A DNA stretch of 64,000 nt. Origin: Escherichia coli (GTDB taxonomy: Bacteria; Pseudomonadota; Gammaproteobacteria; Enterobacterales; Enterobacteriaceae). Position numbers and translations under genes: made by a program. Location of the stretch: the NCBI RefSeq assembly GCF_030013595.1, contig NZ_CP122768.1; one strand, written 5' to 3'. The notes below the pieces were generated by a model. It searched no databases and was not told the origin of the DNA. It was given only the letters and a program-made list of their open reading frames with translations. This document shows, in pieces, positions 40,491 to 58,875 of the stretch (the stretch's first letter is position 1; every line of letters begins with the position of its first letter).

Positions 40491-40992
40491 AACCTGTTCC
40501 TTATTCTGTGAACTTCAGGTGACATTAAAGCTTTACTCCTAATGGAGAAACGACGCAATCCCAACTCAGTCAAACAGGTAAATATTAGTCTGATTATTAG
40601 TAAAGACAATTAATCAATCACTCTCGGTGATCATATGATTTCAACTGTAATTATAAGAAAATAATGTACTGATTCCCCATATTAAACAAGTGGTTAATAT
40701 ATGTAAAACATTTTATTAACATTAAGTTGATTGTTGCCTTTCTTTGTATTTAATTAGTTTGTTGTGCGGTAAGTGTCTGTTTAAAAATAGCTTATCTGGT
40801 ATTGCATTAAAGCAATTATTTATAGCAGATGATTATTTACGGTGAGTTATTTTAACTGTGCGCAACATCCCATTTCGATTATTCCTGTTTCATTTTTGCT
40901 TGCTAGCGTCGCGAAAAACTTTTTAACAGATTGAAATACACCCAAAACAAAAGTATGACTTATACATTTATGTTAAGTAATTGAGCGTTTTG

Positions 40993-46775: not shown

Positions 46776-48437
46776 ATGATTAACCGTATCCGCGTAGTCA
46801 CGCTGTTGGTAATGGTGCTGGGGGTATTCGCACTGTTACAGCTTATTTCCGGCAGTCTGTTTTTTTCTTCCCTTCACCATAGCCAGAAGAGCTTTGTGGT
46901 TTCCAATCAATTACGGGAACAGCAGGGCGAGCTGACGTCAACCTGGGATTTAATGCTGCAAACGCGCATTAACCTGAGTCGTTCAGCGGTGCGGATGATG
47001 ATGGACTCCTCCAATCAACAAAGTAACGCCAAAGTTGAATTGCTCGATAGCGCCAGGAAAACATTGGCCCAGGCCGCGACTCATTATAAAAAATTCAAAA
47101 GCATGGCACCGTTACCTGAAATGGTCGCTACCAGTCGTAATATTGATGAAAAATATAAAAACTATCACACAGCGTTAACTGAACTGATTGATTATCTTGA
47201 TTATGGCAATACTGGAGCTTATTTCGCTCAGCCAACCCAGGGAATGCAAAATGCAATGGGCGAAGCGTTTGCTCAGTACGCCCTCAGCAGTGAAAAACTG
47301 TATCGCGATATCGTCACTGACAACGCAGATGATTACCGATTTGCCCAGTGGCAACTGGCGGTTATTGCGCTGGTGGTGGTATTGATTATGCTGGTGGCGT
47401 GGTACGGCATTCGCCGTATGTTGCTTACACCGCTGGCAAAAATTATTGCTCACATTCGCGAAATCGCCGGTGGTAACCTGGCGAATACCCTGACCATTGA
47501 CGGGCGCAGTGAAATGGGCGACCTGGCGCAGAGCGTTTCACATATGCAACGCTCTTTGACTGACACCGTCACTCATGTGCGTGAAGGTTCCGATGCCATC
47601 TATGCCGGTACCCGTGAAATTGCGGCGGGCAACACCGATCTTTCCTCCCGTACTGAACAGCAGGCATCCGCGCTGGAAGAAACTGCCGCCAGCATGGAGC
47701 AGCTCACTGCGACAGTGAAGCAAAACGCCGATAACGCCCGCCAGGCCTCGCAACTGGCGCAAAGTGCCTCCGATACCGCCCAGCATGGCGGCAAAGTAGT
47801 GGATGGCGTAGTGAAAACGATGCATGAGATCGCCGATAGTTCGAAGAAAATTGCCGACATTATCAGCGTTATCGACGGTATTGCCTTCCAGACTAATATC
47901 CTCGCGTTGAATGCCGCTGTTGAAGCCGCGCGTGCGGGTGAACAGGGCCGTGGTTTTGCCGTGGTGGCGGGCGAAGTGCGTAATCTTGCCAGTCGCAGCG
48001 CCCAGGCGGCAAAAGAGATCAAAGCCCTCATTGAAGACTCCGTCTCGCGCGTTGATACCGGTTCGGTGCTGGTCGAAAGCGCCGGGGAAACAATGAACAA
48101 TATCGTCAATGCTGTCACTCGCGTGACTGACATTATGGGCGAGATTGCATCGGCATCGGATGAACAGAGCCGTGGCATCGATCAAGTCGCATTGGCGGTT
48201 TCGGAAATGGATCGCGTCACGCAACAGAACGCATCGCTGGTGCAGGAATCAGCTGCCGCCGCAGCTGCGCTGGAAGAACAGGCTAGTCGTTTAACGCAAG
48301 CGGTTTCCGCGTTTCGTCTGGCAGCCAGCCCACTCACCAATAAACCGCAAACACCATCCCGTCCTGCCAGTGAGCAACCACCGGCACAGCCACGACTGCG
48401 AATTGCTGAACAAGATCCAAACTGGGAAACATTTTGA
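46776..48437 (+). CDS. tar: Methyl-accepting chemotaxis protein II (aspartate receptor) Tar
   Basis: Sequence recognised; start MINRIRV. Confidence 0.95.
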
Positions 48438-48482: not shown

Positions 48483-50084
48483 ATGTTTAATCGTATTCGA
48501 ATTTCGACCACGCTGTTTTTAATTTTGATTCTCTGCGGGATCTTGCAGATTGGCAGTAACGGCATGTCTTTTTGGGCATTTCGCGACGATTTGCAACGAC
48601 TGAATCAGGTCGAGCAGAGCAATCAGCAACGTGCGGCATTAGCGCAAACTCGGGCGGTAATGTTACAGGCCAGTACCGCGCTGAACAAAGCAGGCACTCT
48701 GACAGCGCTTAGCTATCCGGCGGATGACATTAAAACGTTGATGACGACGGCGCGCGCCAGTCTGACGCAATCCACCACGCTGTTTAAAAGTTTTATGGCG
48801 ATGACTGCGGGCAACGAGCACGTCAGGGCATTGCAAAAAGAGACGGAGAAAAGTTTTGCCCGCTGGCACAACGATCTCGAACATCAGGCGACCTGGCTTG
48901 AAAGTAATCAACTTTCGGATTTCCTCACTGCGCCGGTGCAGGGATCACAGAATGCGTTTGACGTTAACTTTGAGGCCTGGCAGCTGGGGATCAACCATGT
49001 GCTGGAAGCCGCCAGTGCGCAAAGCCAGCGTAACTATCAGATTTCGGCGCTGGTGTTTATCAGCATGATTATTGTTGCGGCGATCTACATCAGCAGTGCG
49101 CTGTGGTGGACGCGCAAGATGATTGTTCAACCACTGGCCATTATCGGTAGCCATTTTGACAGCATTGCTGCGGGTAATCTGGCGCGTCCGATTGCGGTAT
49201 ATGGTCGTAATGAGATCACCGCCATTTTTGCCAGCCTGAAGATCATGCAGCAGGCTTTGCGTGGGACGGTGAGTGATGTGCGTAAGGGAAGCCAGGAGAT
49301 GCACATTGGTATCGCGGAGATTGTCGTAGGCAATAACGATCTCTCAAGTCGTACCGAACAGCAGGCGGCATCGCTGGCACAAACGGCCGCCAGTATGGAG
49401 CAATTAACCGCCACGGTAGGGCAAAACGCCGATAACGCGCGCCAGGCGTCGGAACTGGCAAAAAATGCCGCGACAACGGCGCAGGCGGGCGGTGTTCAGG
49501 TCAGTACCATGACTCACACCATGCAGGAGATCGCCACCAGCTCGCAAAAAATTGGCGACATTATCAGCGTTATCGACGGCATTGCTTTCCAGACCAATAT
49601 TCTGGCCCTGAATGCGGCAGTGGAAGCGGCTCGCGCCGGAGAGCAGGGTCGTGGTTTTGCGGTAGTGGCAGGTGAAGTGCGCAATCTTGCCAGCCGTAGC
49701 GCCCAGGCAGCAAAAGAGATCAAAGGGCTGATCGAAGAGTCAGTCAATCGTGTCCAGCAGGGTTCGAAACTGGTGAATAACGCCGCCGCGACCATGACCG
49801 ATATTGTCAGTTCGGTGACCCGCGTGAACGACATTATGGGAGAAATTGCCTCTGCGTCGGAAGAACAACGGCGGGGAATTGAGCAGGTTGCACAGGCTGT
49901 CAGCCAGATGGATCAGGTGACACAGCAGAACGCCTCGCTGGTAGAAGAAGCGGCGGCGGCAACGGAACAACTGGCGAACCAGGCTGACCATCTTTCGTCG
50001 CGTGTGGCGGTATTTACCCTTGAAGAACATGAAGTAGCACGACATGAGTCGGCGCAGTTACATATTGCGCCAGTGGTATCCTGA
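48483..50084 (+). CDS. tap: Methyl-accepting chemotaxis protein IV (dipeptide receptor) Tap
   Basis: Sequence recognised; start MFNRIRIS. Confidence 0.95.
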   Translation: MFNRIRISTTLFLILILCGILQIGSNGMSFWAFRDDLQRLNQVEQSNQQRAALAQTRAVMLQASTALNKAGTLTALSYPADDIKTLMTTARASLTQSTTLFKSFMAMTAGNEHVRALQKETEKSFARWHNDLEHQATWLESNQLSDFLTAPVQGSQNAFDVNFEAWQLGINHVLEAASAQSQRNYQISALVFISMIIVAAIYISSALWWTRKMIVQPLAIIGSHFDSIAAGNLARPIAVYGRNEITAIFASLKIMQQALRGTVSDVRKGSQEMHIGIAEIVVGNNDLSSRTEQQAASLAQTAASMEQLTATVGQNADNARQASELAKNAATTAQAGGVQVSTMTHTMQEIATSSQKIGDIISVIDGIAFQTNILALNAAVEAARAGEQGRGFAVVAGEVRNLASRSAQAAKEIKGLIEESVNRVQQGSKLVNNAAATMTDIVSSVTRVNDIMGEIASASEEQRRGIEQVAQAVSQMDQVTQQNASLVEEAAAATEQLANQADHLSSRVAVFTLEEHEVARHESAQLHIAPVVS

Positions 50085-50965: not shown

Positions 50966-52419
<1,454 letters not shown>

Positions 52420-52429
52420 GGATGCGACT

Positions 52430-53074
52430 ATGATGCAACCATCAATCAAACCTGCTGACGAGCATTCAGCTGGCGATATCATTGCGCGCATCGGCAGCCT
52501 GACGCGTATGCTGCGCGACAGTTTGCGGGAGCTGGGGCTGGATCAGGCCATTGCCGAAGCGGCGGAAGCCATCCCCGATGCGCGCGATCGTTTGTACTAT
52601 GTTGTGCAGATGACCGCCCAGGCTGCTGAGCGGGCGCTGAACAGTGTTGAGGCGTCACAACCGCATCAGGATCAAATGGAGAAATCAGCAAAAGCGTTAA
52701 CCCAACGTTGGGATGACTGGTTTGCCGATCCGATTGACCTTGCCGACGCCCGAGAACTGGTAACAGATACGCGGCAATTTCTGGCAGATGTCCCCGCGCA
52801 TACCAGCTTTACTAACGCGCAACTGCTGGAAATCATGATGGCGCAGGATTTTCAGGATCTCACCGGACAGGTCATTAAGCGGATGATGGATGTCATTCAG
52901 GAGATCGAACGCCAGTTGTTGATGGTGCTGTTGGAAAACATCCCGGAACAGGAGTCGCGTCCAAAACGTGAAAACCAGAGTTTGCTTAATGGACCTCAGG
53001 TCGATACCAGCAAAGCCGGTGTGGTAGCCAGTCAGGATCAGGTGGACGATTTGTTGGATAGTCTTGGATTTTGA
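52430..53074 (+). CDS. cheZ: CheY-phosphate phosphatase CheZ
   Basis: Sequence recognised; start trimmed to MMQPSIKP. Confidence 0.95.
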
Positions 53075-53079
53075 TTTGT

Positions 53080-53140
53080 ATTGCCTGATGTGGCGTGACC
53101 ACGTCATATCAGGCGATGACGCCGCATCCGACAAACGCAT
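53080..53140. repeat. REP-like palindromic unit(s) in the cheZ-flhB intergenic region
   Basis: Imperfect hairpin gcctgat...atcaggc followed by gatgacgccgcatccgac, resembling the REP consensus. Confidence 0.4.
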
Positions 53141-53262
53141 ACTATGCTTGATGTGTGGCAGCAAAAGCCCTAAATCCCGCCTGTTTTGCCCCTTACTCAA
53201 ACCATTGAACGCTTTGCGCTCTGGCATCATTTACGCTTAATACTCTTTCCAGGATTGGCGAC

Positions 53263-54411
53263 GTGTCTGACGAGAGCGACGACAAAACAGAAGCCCCCAC
53301 ACCTCACCGACTAGAAAAAGCGCGGGAAGAGGGGCAAATCCCGCGTTCCCGTGAACTGACTTCACTGCTGATTTTGCTGGTGGGCGTTAGTGTTATCTGG
53401 TTTGGCGGTGTGTCGCTGGCCCGTCGATTGTCGGGCATGCTCTCCGCTGGGCTGCATTTTGATCACAGTATTATCAATGACCCGAATCTGATCCTCGGGC
53501 AGATTATTCTGCTGATCAGAGAAGCCATGCTGGCGCTGCTGCCACTCATTAGCGGCGTGGTGCTGGTGGCGCTCATTTCTCCGGTCATGCTGGGAGGGCT
53601 GGTATTTAGCGGAAAATCCTTGCAGCCAAAGTTTTCCAAACTCAACCCGCTACCGGGGATTAAACGGATGTTCTCGGCACAGACTGGCGCGGAGTTGCTT
53701 AAAGCAATTTTGAAAACCATCCTGGTTGGCAGCGTGACGGGATTTTTTCTCTGGCATCACTGGCCGCAGATGATGCGCTTAATGGCTGAGTCTCCGATTA
53801 CCGCCATGGGTAATGCGATGGATCTGGTAGGGCTATGCGCGCTGCTGGTGGTGCTTGGTGTCATTCCAATGGTGGGATTTGACGTCTTTTTCCAAATCTT
53901 CAGCCACCTGAAAAAGCTGCGAATGTCACGGCAGGATATTCGTGATGAGTTCAAACAAAGCGAAGGCGACCCCCATGTTAAAGGGCGGATCCGTCAGATG
54001 CAGCGAGCGGCCGCACGGCGTCGGATGATGGCCGATGTGCCGAAAGCGGATGTCATTGTCAATAACCCGACCCACTATTCGGTAGCGTTGCAGTATGACG
54101 AAAACAAAATGAGCGCACCGAAAGTGGTCGCTAAAGGTGCAGGGCTGGTCGCGCTGCGCATTCGTGAAATTGGCGCTGAAAATAACGTCCCGACGCTTGA
54201 AGCGCCGCCGCTGGCGCGTGCGCTGTATCGACATGCGGAGATCGGTCAACAAATCCCGGGTCAACTGTACGCCGCGGTGGCGGAAGTGCTGGCCTGGGTC
54301 TGGCAACTGAAACGCTGGCGTCTGGCCGGTGGACAGCGCCCTGTACAACCTACTCATCTTCCGGTGCCGGAAGCCCTGGATTTTATTAACGAGAAACCGA
54401 CCCATGAGTAA
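53263..54411 (+). CDS. flhB: Flagellar export apparatus protein FlhB
   Basis: Sequence recognised; GTG start; NPTH autocleavage motif. Confidence 0.95.
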   Translation: MSDESDDKTEAPTPHRLEKAREEGQIPRSRELTSLLILLVGVSVIWFGGVSLARRLSGMLSAGLHFDHSIINDPNLILGQIILLIREAMLALLPLISGVVLVALISPVMLGGLVFSGKSLQPKFSKLNPLPGIKRMFSAQTGAELLKAILKTILVGSVTGFFLWHHWPQMMRLMAESPITAMGNAMDLVGLCALLVVLGVIPMVGFDVFFQIFSHLKKLRMSRQDIRDEFKQSEGDPHVKGRIRQMQRAAARRRMMADVPKADVIVNNPTHYSVALQYDENKMSAPKVVAKGAGLVALRIREIGAENNVPTLEAPPLARALYRHAEIGQQIPGQLYAAVAEVLAWVWQLKRWRLAGGQRPVQPTHLPVPEALDFINEKPTHE

Positions 54412-56482
54412 TCTGGCCGCGATGCTGCGCCTGCCCGCAAACCTGAAATCGACACAATGGCAGATCCTTGCCGGACCGATTTTGATCCTGTTGATCTTGT
54501 CGATGATGGTGCTGCCACTGCCCGCATTCATACTCGACCTGTTGTTTACCTTCAATATTGCCTTGTCGATCATGGTGTTGCTGGTGGCGATGTTTACCCA
54601 GCGCACGCTTGAGTTTGCTGCGTTTCCGACCATTCTGTTGTTTACCACGCTGTTGCGTCTGGCACTTAACGTGGCTTCAACCCGTATCATTTTGATGGAA
54701 GGGCATACCGGCGCGGCGGCGGCTGGAAAGGTGGTCGAAGCGTTCGGTCACTTCCTCGTTGGTGGCAATTTCGCTATCGGTATCGTGGTGTTCGTCATTC
54801 TCGTGATCATCAACTTTATGGTTATCACCAAAGGTGCCGGGCGTATTGCGGAAGTGGGCGCGCGCTTTGTTCTCGATGGTATGCCGGGTAAGCAGATGGC
54901 GATTGACGCCGACCTTAACGCCGGATTGATTGGTGAAGATGAAGCGAAAAAACGCCGCTCCGAAGTGACTCAGGAAGCCGATTTTTACGGTTCAATGGAC
55001 GGGGCAAGTAAGTTTGTTCGCGGCGATGCCATCGCCGGGATCCTCATCATGGTCATAAACGTTGTCGGTGGGTTGCTGGTCGGCGTGCTGCAACATGGCA
55101 TGAGCATGGGACACGCGGCGGAAAGTTATACGCTATTGACCATTGGCGACGGTCTGGTGGCACAAATTCCGGCGTTGGTGATTTCTACCGCCGCGGGGGT
55201 CATCGTTACGCGTGTCAGCACCGATCAGGATGTTGGCGAGCAGATGGTGAATCAGCTTTTCAGTAACCCGAGCGTTATGTTGTTAAGCGCCGCCGTGCTC
55301 GGTTTACTCGGCCTGGTGCCTGGAATGCCGAACCTGGTATTTTTGCTGTTCACTGCCGGATTGCTTGGGCTGGCCTGGTGGATCCGCGGACGCGAACAAA
55401 AAGCGCCTGCCGAACCAAAACCGGTAAAAATGGCAGAGAATAATGCCGTTGTCGAAGCGACGTGGAACGATGTACAACTGGAAGATTCTCTGGGAATGGA
55501 AGTGGGTTATCGCCTGATCCCGATGGTCGATTTCCAGCAGGATGGTGAGTTGCTGGGCCGTATACGCAGTATTCGCAAGAAATTTGCCCAGGAGATGGGG
55601 TTTCTGCCGCCGGTGGTGCACATTCGCGACAATATGGATCTGCAACCTGCCCGCTATCGCATTTTGATGAAAGGCGTGGAGATAGGCAGTGGTGATGCTT
55701 ATCCGGGGCGTTGGTTGGCGATTAACCCTGGTACCGCTGCCGGGACGTTACCTGGTGAGGCGACCGTCGATCCGGCATTTGGCCTGAATGCTATCTGGAT
55801 TGAAAGTGCGCTTAAAGAACAGGCGCAGATTCAGGGGTACACCGTGGTTGAGGCCAGCACGGTGGTGGCAACGCATCTTAACCACCTCATTAGCCAGCAT
55901 GCCGCAGAGCTGTTTGGTCGTCAGGAGGCGCAACAGTTGCTGGATCGCGTCGCCCAGGAGATGCCAAAGCTGACGGAAGATCTCGTTCCTGGCGTCGTCA
56001 CGCTCACCACACTGCATAAAGTGCTGCAAAATCTGCTCGATGAAAAAGTGCCGATTCGCGATATGCGCACTATTCTCGAAACGCTGGCGGAACATGCGCC
56101 CATCCAAAGCGATCCACATGAATTAACCGCCGTCGTGCGCGTGGCGTTGGGACGGGCGATTACCCAGCAGTGGTTTCCTGGCAAAGATGAAGTTCATGTT
56201 ATTGGCCTCGATACACCGCTGGAACGTTTGTTGCTACAGGCGTTGCAGGGCGGGGGCGGACTGGAGCCAGGGCTGGCGGATCGTTTACTGGCGCAAACTC
56301 AGGAAGCGCTATCCCGTCAGGAGATGTTGGGTGCGCCGCCAGTTTTATTGGTGAACCACGCGCTGCGACCATTATTGTCTCGCTTCCTGCGCCGCAGCTT
56401 GCCGCAGTTAGTGGTGCTGTCGAATCTGGAACTATCTGATAACCGACATATCCGCATGACGGCGACAATTGGCGGTAAATGA
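54404..56482 (+). CDS. flhA: Flagellar export apparatus protein FlhA
   Basis: Sequence recognised; start trimmed to MSNLAAM. Confidence 0.95.
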   Translation: MSNLAAMLRLPANLKSTQWQILAGPILILLILSMMVLPLPAFILDLLFTFNIALSIMVLLVAMFTQRTLEFAAFPTILLFTTLLRLALNVASTRIILMEGHTGAAAAGKVVEAFGHFLVGGNFAIGIVVFVILVIINFMVITKGAGRIAEVGARFVLDGMPGKQMAIDADLNAGLIGEDEAKKRRSEVTQEADFYGSMDGASKFVRGDAIAGILIMVINVVGGLLVGVLQHGMSMGHAAESYTLLTIGDGLVAQIPALVISTAAGVIVTRVSTDQDVGEQMVNQLFSNPSVMLLSAAVLGLLGLVPGMPNLVFLLFTAGLLGLAWWIRGREQKAPAEPKPVKMAENNAVVEATWNDVQLEDSLGMEVGYRLIPMVDFQQDGELLGRIRSIRKKFAQEMGFLPPVVHIRDNMDLQPARYRILMKGVEIGSGDAYPGRWLAINPGTAAGTLPGEATVDPAFGLNAIWIESALKEQAQIQGYTVVEASTVVATHLNHLISQHAAELFGRQEAQQLLDRVAQEMPKLTEDLVPGVVTLTTLHKVLQNLLDEKVPIRDMRTILETLAEHAPIQSDPHELTAVVRVALGRAITQQWFPGKDEVHVIGLDTPLERLLLQALQGGGGLEPGLADRLLAQTQEALSRQEMLGAPPVLLVNHALRPLLSRFLRRSLPQLVVLSNLELSDNRHIRMTATIGGK

Positions 56483-56874
56483 TGAGAACCTTATTAGCAA
56501 TATTATTGTTTCCGCTGCTGGTGCAAGCCGCCGGGGAGGGGATGTGGCAGGCGAGTAGTGTGGGCGTTACGCTGAATCACCGTGGTGAGTCGATGTCGTC
56601 AGCGCCTCTTTCTACTCGACAACCTGCTGCAGGATTGATGACGCTGGTGGCGTGGCGTTATCAGCTTATCGGCCCGACACCTGCAGGACTGCGGGTTCGC
56701 TTGTGTTCACAATCTCGTTGTGTCGAATTAGAAGGGCAGAGTGGAACCACCGTGGCCTTTTCCGGTATACCGGCGATAGAACCGTTGCGATTTATCTGGG
56801 AAGTGCCTGGCGGTGGGCGGTTAATTCCGCCGCTAAAGGTACAACGGAATGAAGTGATTGTGAATTATCGTTAA
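56482..56874 (+). CDS. flhE: Flagellar protein FlhE
   Basis: Sequence recognised (130 aa). Confidence 0.9.
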   Translation: MRTLLAILLFPLLVQAAGEGMWQASSVGVTLNHRGESMSSAPLSTRQPAAGLMTLVAWRYQLIGPTPAGLRVRLCSQSRCVELEGQSGTTVAFSGIPAIEPLRFIWEVPGGGRLIPPLKVQRNEVIVNYR

Positions 56875-56880
56875 TGATAA

Positions 56881-56914
56881 AAAAGCCGATGTCTGCCATG
56901 ACATCGGCTTTTGC
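56881..56914. terminator. Bidirectional terminator hairpin between convergent flhE and argS
   Basis: aagccgatgtc tgccatg gacatcggctt. Confidence 0.55.
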
Positions 56915-56926
56915 CGTATAACGCGA

Positions 56927-58660
56927 TTACATACGCTCTACTGTCTCAATACCCAGCGTATCCAGACCCAGTTTCAGCGTCTTCGCCGTCAGTTGTGCCA
57001 GTTTCAGACGGCTGTTACGCACTTCTTCGTTTTCTGCGCTGAGGATCGGGCAGTGCTCGTAGAAGCCAGAGAACAGACCAGCCAGATCGTACAGGTAAGC
57101 ACACATCACATGCGGCGTGCCTTCACGGGCAACCACGGTGAGGGTTTCTTCAAACTGCAGCAGGCGAGCTGCCAGTTGCGCTTCACGATCTTCACGGATG
57201 ATAACCGGAGCTGCAGCCAGTTGCTCTTCGTCAATTTCTGCTTTACGGAACACGGACAATACACGCGTGTATGCATACTGCATGTATGGCGCGGTATTAC
57301 CCTCAAACGCCAGCATGTTGTCCCAGTCGAAGATGTAGTCCGTGGTGCGGTTTTTGGAGAGATCCGCATATTTCACCGCACCAATACCAACTGCGTTAGC
57401 CAGTTTTTCCAGCTCGTCGGCTGGCATATCCGGGTTCTTTTCTGCCACCAGACGACGTGCACGCTCCAGGGCTTCATCCAGCAGATCGGCCAGTTTCACC
57501 GTACCGCCAGCGCGGGTTTTGAACGGTTTGCCGTCTTTACCCAGCATCATGCCGAACATGTGGTGTTCCAGCGGTACGGATTCCGGTACATAGCCCGCTT
57601 TGCGGACGATAGCCCACGCCTGCATCAGGTGTTGATGCTGACGGGAGTCGATGTAATACAGCACGCGATCGGCATGCAGTGTTTCATAACGATATTTCGC
57701 ACAGGCGATATCAGTGGTGGTGTAGAGATAGCCACCATCTTTCTTCTGAATGATCACGCCCATCGGTTCGCCTTCCTTGTTTTTGAACTCATCAAGGAAT
57801 ACGACGGTCGCGCCTTCGCTTTCTACTGCCAGACCTTTGGCTTTGAGATCTGCCACGATACCCGGCAGCATCGGGTTATAGAGGCTTTCGCCCATCACGT
57901 CATCACGGGTCAGAGTCACGTTGAGACGATCGTAGGTGATCTGGTTCTGCGTCATGGTGATGTCGACCAGTTTGCGCCACATCTCGCGGAAATATTCGTC
58001 ACCGCTTTGCAGTTTTACCACGTAGTTACGTGCACGCTCGGCAAACTCTTCATCCTCGTCGTAATGCTTTTTCGCATCGCGGTAGAAACCTTCAAGGTCA
58101 GCCAGCTCCATTTCACCGGCGTTTTCTTGCTGCTGCTTTTCCAGCCATGCAATCAGCATACCGAACTGAGTGCCCCAGTCGCCGACGTGGTTTGCGCGAA
58201 TCACTTTGTGACCGAGGAACTCCAGAGTACGCACTGCTGCGTCACCAATAATGGTAGAGCGCAGGTGACCGACATGCATCTCTTTCGCCACGTTTGGCGC
58301 AGAGTAGTCAACCACAATGGTCTGTTTTTCTGGCGTAGCAACACCGAGACGATCGGACGCCAGCGCCTGCTGAACATGATCAGCCAGGAATGCCGGATCA
58401 AGGAAAATGTTGATAAAGCCTGGACCGGCGATCTCAACTTTGCTGGCGATACCGTTAAGATCCAGATGAGTCAGCACCTGCTCTGCTAATTGTCGCGGTG
58501 CCATACCCAGTTTTTTAGCAACTGCCATCATGCCGTTAGCCTGATAGTCGCCGAACTGAACTTTTGCTGACTGACGAACCTGCGGTTCGCAATCCGCAGG
58601 CGCGCCTGCCGCAATCATGGCCTGACGGACTTTTTCTGAGAGAAGAGCCTGAATATTCAC
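56927..58660 (-). CDS. argS: Arginine--tRNA ligase ArgS
   Basis: 577-aa class I aaRS; HVGH motif; sequence recognised. Confidence 0.95.
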
Positions 58661-58875
58661 CGGAATACCTTACATTGATGAAGCGAGCAAAAATTGCCCG
58701 CACCAGTTAAAGAAATTAGGGCGGGAGTATACTGCAAATGGCTGTTTTCGTCAGCAACGTGCGCGTGGCGTATTGCCGTTTTCACTATTGCATCAGAAGC
58801 GGCGTGAAATCAGCGGTTGGTTGGCGCAGGGCAACAGGGTAAATTAACGCTTTTACTGAAAGACGAAGAGTGATT

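Follow-up and report, generated by a model that had tools for sequence, protein, structure and literature searches.

The short flhE–argS junction of an Escherichia coli genome is a common allele without yecT and yecV that carries a predicted terminator hairpin

The flhE–argS junction and its hairpin

In the window, which is the whole 64,000-nucleotide stretch of E. coli DNA that was analysed (contig NZ_CP122768.1 of assembly GCF_030013595.1), the genes flhB, flhA and flhE lie in this order on the + strand and are followed by argS, yecM and cutC. The coordinates of the junction between flhE and argS are collected in Table 1, together with those of the other features discussed below. The flhE open reading frame begins with an ATG at 56479, and the RefSeq version of the gene, with 393 nt, starts at 56482. 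Since the flhE product matches the FlhE family in Pfam (PF06366) with an E value of 3e-41 over profile positions 1-106 of 106, and since the ArgS protein of the window shares 99.8% amino-acid identity with K-12 ArgS, both genes are intact. A sequence-only reading of this DNA had put exactly 52 bp between the two convergent genes, and the positions of both stop codons confirmed this distance. RefSeq annotates no feature inside the flhE–argS gap of genomes with this short junction (the short form). The 3' end of flhE itself consists of three consecutive in-frame stops, TAA-TGA-TAA, and TAA was the first flhE stop in every E. coli short form checked.

Table 1. Positions of the features at and around the flhE–argS junction and at the loci used for comparison. 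Positions refer to the window unless a locus is named.
Feature	Location	Strand	Basis or remark
flhE	56479..56874	+	last gene of the flhBAE operon; ORF list, Pfam, RefSeq in an identical genome
flhE stop codon, TAA	56872-56874	+	sequence, ORF list
Three consecutive in-frame stops	56872-56880	+	TAA-TGA-TAA
flhE–argS intergenic spacer, probable empty-site allele without yecT and yecV	56875..56926	.	52 bp; sequence, K-12 alignment
Hairpin, predicted bidirectional intrinsic terminator	56881..56912	.	folding of both strands, terminator scan (- strand)
Left arm of hairpin	56881-56893		pairs with right arm
Loop of hairpin	56894-56899		
Right arm of hairpin	56900-56912		pairs with left arm
ORF of 35 codons, rejected as a gene	56792-56899	-	ATG in hairpin loop
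argS (arginine--tRNA ligase)	56927..58660	-	convergent with flhE; ORF list, RefSeq in matching genomes
Complement of argS stop codon, TTA	56927-56929	-	
Site without IS1H	40965-40972		K-12 alignment
Cross-matching segments, apparently of tar and tap	47616-48241 and 49329-49960		K-12 alignment
yecV of K-12	L001, 2838-2882		14 codons
MFS_2 and GH88 genes, example	L022, 4658-7382		
MFS_2 and GH88 genes, example	L008, 5851-7719		
Type VI secretion cluster with YecT homolog	L083, 2183-5808		
Type VI secretion cluster with YecT homolog	L082, 1-5818		

The content of the 52-bp spacer is essentially one stem-loop between an A-run and a T-run. The left arm (AAAAGCCGATGTC) pairs with the right arm (GACATCGGCTTTT) in a 13-bp stem, where a GC-rich core of 9 bp is extended by A-U pairs, and the stem is closed by a loop of 6 nt. 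The hairpin starts 6 nt past the stop codon of flhE and 14 nt past that of argS, and on the + strand it is flanked by A6 upstream and T4 downstream, with six A ahead of the GC core. When both strands were folded, the + strand reached -25.4 kcal/mol (z -5.7) and the - strand -25.7 kcal/mol (z -4.3), and on neither strand was any of 200 dinucleotide shuffles as stable. On the argS (-) strand, the stem is followed by TTTTTTATCATT, with U6, and the terminator consensus scan, which needs at least 5 T in 8, reports an intrinsic terminator on this strand. On the flhE (+) strand, the bases after the GC core are only TTTT, then GCCG, and the scan left the + strand uncalled. In strain LF82, the T-tract of the flhE strand is interrupted (CTGTT).

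Based on these features, the hairpin would serve the argS strand as a canonical Rho-independent terminator, in which a GC-rich core is followed by UUUUUU. The same hairpin presents UUUU after the stem on the flhE strand and probably stops the flhBAE transcript too, at a lower efficiency; termination in the flhE direction is probably weaker because only four U follow the hairpin there. The earlier reading that only a shared hairpin separates flhE and argS agrees with this layout, the hairpin filling most of the 52 bp. While the folding was computed, transcription termination on either strand is what we infer from it.

Comparison with K-12 and frequency among E. coli genomes

In the K-12 reference NC_000913.3, the ends of argS and flhE are at 1961795 and 1962580, respectively, and the 784-bp gap between them holds yecT (b1877, 489 nt) and yecV (b4778, 45 nt). 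The sequence-only reading had placed yecT between argS and flhE in K-12 and had proposed a comparison with the reference; the annotation of NC_000913.3 bore out the presence of yecT, and with 784 bp in the reference the same 52-bp spacing was not found there. Its description of yecT as an extra small ORF stood only in part. While yecT is indeed extra in K-12, with a product of 162 aa it is no particularly small gene, and the window also lacks a second gene of K-12, the tiny yecV. A tblastn search with K-12 YecT returned nothing in window positions 52001-61000, and in the K-12 alignment the start and body of yecV (ATGTCCATTTTCAGAATACATTTAGATGGC...) were not found in the spacer of the window.

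A global alignment showed that the window and K-12 are homologous up to the last sense codon of flhE and again from 3 nt ahead of the argS stop codon. Within the K-12 spacer the alignment gave short chance matches only. Since this spacer does not contain the 52 bp, a simple deletion from the K-12 form was rejected. The stems of the terminators are GCCGATGTC/GACATCGGC in the window and GCCTGATC/GATCAGGC in the argS-proximal terminator of K-12, between flanks that are ~98% identical. The argS-proximal terminator of the yecT-bearing long form and the short spacer are weakly similar, with a score of 10 vs 3.2 +/- 1.6 in shuffles. This similarity could reflect distant homology or merely a shared terminator shape, and it would fit an insertion as well as an old deletion beside a shared terminator.

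Across the 34 kb compared, the window and K-12 diverge by ~2%. The most divergent 500-bp bin is 56500-56999, which contains flhE and the junction, at 5.9%, and the FlhE proteins share 95% identity. A deep haplotype block around the indel was considered and rejected, as the flhE bin gave only a modest peak and no strong allele-linked block was seen. LF82, which has the short form, is as distant from the window in the flhE–argS region as K-12 is.

The alignment with K-12 gave two observations elsewhere in the window. Upstream of flhD, the window is without the 768-bp IS1H that MG1655 has, and the alignment blocks abut at this site with an overlap of 8 bp, which is consistent with a single-copy IS1 target-site duplication. 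At the expected position of tar and tap, two segments gave reciprocal cross-matches of 73-75% to the K-12 locus, which looks like ordinary paralogy of these adjacent chemoreceptors.

The population counts were made on 5,426 complete RefSeq E. coli genomes. Using a 141-bp junction-spanning query of which at least 80% was covered in one place, we found the short junction in 1,783 genomes (33%), and yecT was present in 3,638 (67%). Considering that the two numbers add up to 5,421 of 5,426, the flhE–argS locus is essentially dimorphic, at ~33% vs 67%. LF82, which we take to belong to phylogroup B2, has the short form, and K-12, SE11 and O157:H7 strains, presumably of phylogroups A, B1 and E, have the long form. 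The region itself contains no Clermont marker for the phylogroup of the window strain. Both the 52-bp spacing and the TAA stop were also present in four other short-form E. coli strains checked. The suggestion of ordinary strain variation is borne out by these counts, and the short junction is a common, already-annotated allele with nothing novel about it. Not every E. coli has the K-12 order argS-yecV-yecT-flhE. In one third of the complete genomes the junction is the bare 52-bp terminator, and when annotation is transferred from K-12, yecT and yecV are not to be expected here.

The site in other Enterobacteriaceae and the origin of the two alleles

A search for FlhE in GTDB species representatives returned 80 loci, and E. 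fergusonii, E. marmotae and the main E. coli representative were not among them. The short form with the stem arms of the window was found in E. albertii NBRC 107761 (L005) and in Escherichia sp. SCPM-O-B-8794 (L002), which is a distinct Escherichia species whose argS shares 92.6% nucleotide identity with that of the window. The long form with yecT was found in Escherichia sp. E1V33 (L003) and E. whittamii (L004), and their yecT cassettes are 94.5% and 91.7% identical to that of K-12, respectively, a divergence of 5.5-8.3% that is about the same as in the flanking genes.

Among the loci from other genera (L006-L081), ~69 of 76 carry genes for an MFS_2 sugar transporter and a GH88 glycoside hydrolase between flhE and argS, and in Salmonella and several Citrobacter a PBP2-like transpeptidase paralog is added at this site. 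None of these 76 loci has yecT downstream of flhE, and yecT occupies this site in Escherichia loci only (L003, L004 and K-12). In four Enterobacter/Lelliottia species the junction measures ~55 bp, and its argS terminator is the same as that of relatives with the two-gene cassette; these species collapsed the site independently and kept the argS terminator. Considering that their ~55-bp junctions retain it, the argS terminator is the fixed element, while the DNA between it and flhE turns over, and the flhE–argS site is a family-wide spot of gene-content turnover.

Taken all together, the 52 bp are very probably the complete spacer of a common natural allele without yecT and yecV, containing a predicted terminator and representing the older empty-site state, into which the cassette was gained. 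Judged by the outgroups, the older, empty-site allele is most likely the one in the window, and the cassette of K-12 is most likely a gain. We regard the short form as the older one because its stem arms occur in E. albertii and SCPM-O-B-8794, because yecT is found at the site in Escherichia only, and because MFS_2 and GH88 genes are found there elsewhere. The stems shared with these two species also suggest that the short form predates the diversification of E. coli. As a course of events, the Escherichia ancestor would have lost the MFS_2/GH88 pair and kept a short spacer with nothing but the terminator; some Escherichia lineage would later have gained the yecT cassette; and homologous recombination in the conserved flanks would then have moved both alleles from lineage to lineage. 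Since the divergence of the cassette between K-12 and the two long-form species matches that of the flanking genes, the long form is also old, and the two alleles may instead represent an ancestral polymorphism.

The opposite direction, in which yecT and yecV were deleted from a K-12-like ancestor and the short junction is a loss, not a gain, seems improbable. The argS-proximal spacer of K-12 (ATAAAAAAGCC...GGCTT...CGA) is closer to the 52-bp spacer than shuffles are, a deletion reaching from the flhE stop to a shared terminator is geometrically possible, and a different cassette was independently deleted at the same site in Enterobacter and Lelliottia. However, such a loss is at odds with a K-12 spacer that does not contain the 52 bp and with hairpin stems that differ despite nearly identical flanks, and it does not sit well with window-type stems in E. 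albertii and SCPM-O-B-8794 or with the presence of yecT at the site in no genus outside Escherichia.

We consider it very unlikely that, besides the terminator, the spacer encodes an sRNA or a small protein or contains a repeat element (REP/BIME or a MITE remnant). An ORF of 35 codons does start from an ATG in the hairpin loop, but it runs antisense to flhE, and the loop ATG is gone in LF82 and FDAARGOS_1256 (loop TGCAAT) and in the other Escherichia species; with its start codon not conserved, this ORF was rejected. Rfam gave no match at E<=1 in window positions 56000-57600 and sub-threshold noise only at the K-12 locus, and in the complete E. coli genomes the 141-bp junction query matched a median of 1 place per genome and never more than 2. 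Because the spacer is single-copy and without an Rfam match, it is not a REP-type repeat (REP/BIME, MITE) or a known sRNA, and the gap is likewise free of RefSeq annotation. An error of assembly, or a lesion private to this strain, has practically no probability as the cause of the short gap, given that 1,783 complete genomes, LF82 among them, share the junction in identical or near-identical form and come from many hosts and countries, and that both flhE and argS are intact.

The absent cassette and comparison with known arrangements

The cassette, present in K-12 and in about two thirds of E. coli, is an AT-rich stretch of ~730 bp between the stop codon of flhE and the argS-proximal terminator, with 39% GC vs 53% in argS and flhE. 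The product of yecT is a periplasmic protein of the LprI/DUF1311 family (PF07007, E 1e-17 in Pfam, 162 aa). When a solved structure for YecT was sought by sequence search, the best hit had an E value of 0.18 and was an unrelated protein. The yecT gene is activated by BglJ-RcsB and partly repressed by H-NS/StpA (PMC3950696). Considering that AT-richness and partial H-NS/StpA repression of yecT are typical of acquired DNA, the cassette looks acquired. The second gene, yecV, has 14 codons in K-12 (MSIFRIHLDGNKKA) and reads toward argS; its last codons and stop overlap the A-run and the left arm of the argS-proximal terminator hairpin of K-12, and a conserved version of it, with substitutions, is present in the long-form species E1V33 and E. 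whittamii.

The closest YecT homologs outside Escherichia, at 61% identity, lie inside type VI secretion system (T6SS) clusters (L083 and L082). In L083, VgrG is followed in order by a protein of 761 aa with a pesticin/lysozyme-like domain, an LprI protein of 124 aa and the YecT homolog, directly behind which come PAAR and then TssM-type genes. In L082, the YecT homolog, again directly ahead of PAAR, comes after a protein with a CHAP domain and after four small ORFs. The contigs with these clusters had no megablast match in the 5,426 E. coli genomes and are therefore not from E. coli. DUF1311/LprI proteins have already been described as T6SS immunity proteins (PMC12135965; Etsi4 in PMC12981562). 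Since its homologs reside in T6SS clusters and such immunity proteins are described, yecT is plausibly an orphan immunity-type gene, a relative of the LprI/DUF1311 proteins of T6SS clusters.

A more far-reaching reading, which we hold to be rather unlikely, would make the flhE–argS junction an ancient trans-species polymorphism for the presence or absence of yecT, maintained by balancing selection, with yecT as an orphan T6SS-immunity-like gene. It is suggested by the YecT homologs in T6SS clusters and by the finding of both alleles in several species of Escherichia, where they diverge at the level of species. If it were true, protection from the peptidoglycan-hydrolase effectors of rivals would be set against the cost of carrying yecT, and the strain of the window would be a naturally 'unprotected' genotype. 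The overall significance of the junction is small. The one mildly interesting lead is the absent yecT, as an orphan-like relative of the T6SS-cluster LprI/DUF1311 proteins, and this lead concerns the absent cassette and is not a property of the window.

Returning to the empty-site allele that the window most likely carries, its hairpin can be compared with the bidirectional Rho-independent terminators between convergent bacterial genes, which are an established general class. The likeness is one GC-rich hairpin with A-tract and T-tract flanks between two convergent stop codons, and the junction is a clear natural case of two convergent genes with what appears to be a single, shared hairpin terminator. 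The difference is that the T-tract on the flhE strand of the window has only 4 residues, so that termination that way may be weak.

Compared with the argS-yecV-yecT-flhE locus of K-12 MG1655 (b1876-b1878, b4778), the window has the same flanking genes in the same convergence, at nucleotide identities of 98.3% for argS and 97.7% for flhA, and both have an A-run/hairpin terminator within ~20 nt of the argS stop. In contrast, K-12 has 784 bp with yecT and yecV where the window has 52 bp with neither, its terminator stems are different, and its flhE stop is TGA instead of TAA. E. albertii and SCPM-O-B-8794 share with the window the architecture, identical stem arms and the ATAAAAAAGCC lead-in, while their loop is 3 nt longer and their tail is different. 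In these two species, the first flhE stop of the E. coli short forms, TAA, is replaced by a sense codon (CAG/CAA), so that flhE has one more codon before TGA and FlhE is one residue longer. In most Enterobacteriaceae, which have the order flhE-MFS_2-GH88(-PBP2 paralog)-argS, the site is likewise bounded by flhE and argS and the argS terminator is positionally conserved, whereas 2-3.7 kb or more of metabolic and cell-wall genes occupy the place where Escherichia has 52-55 bp or the yecT cassette.
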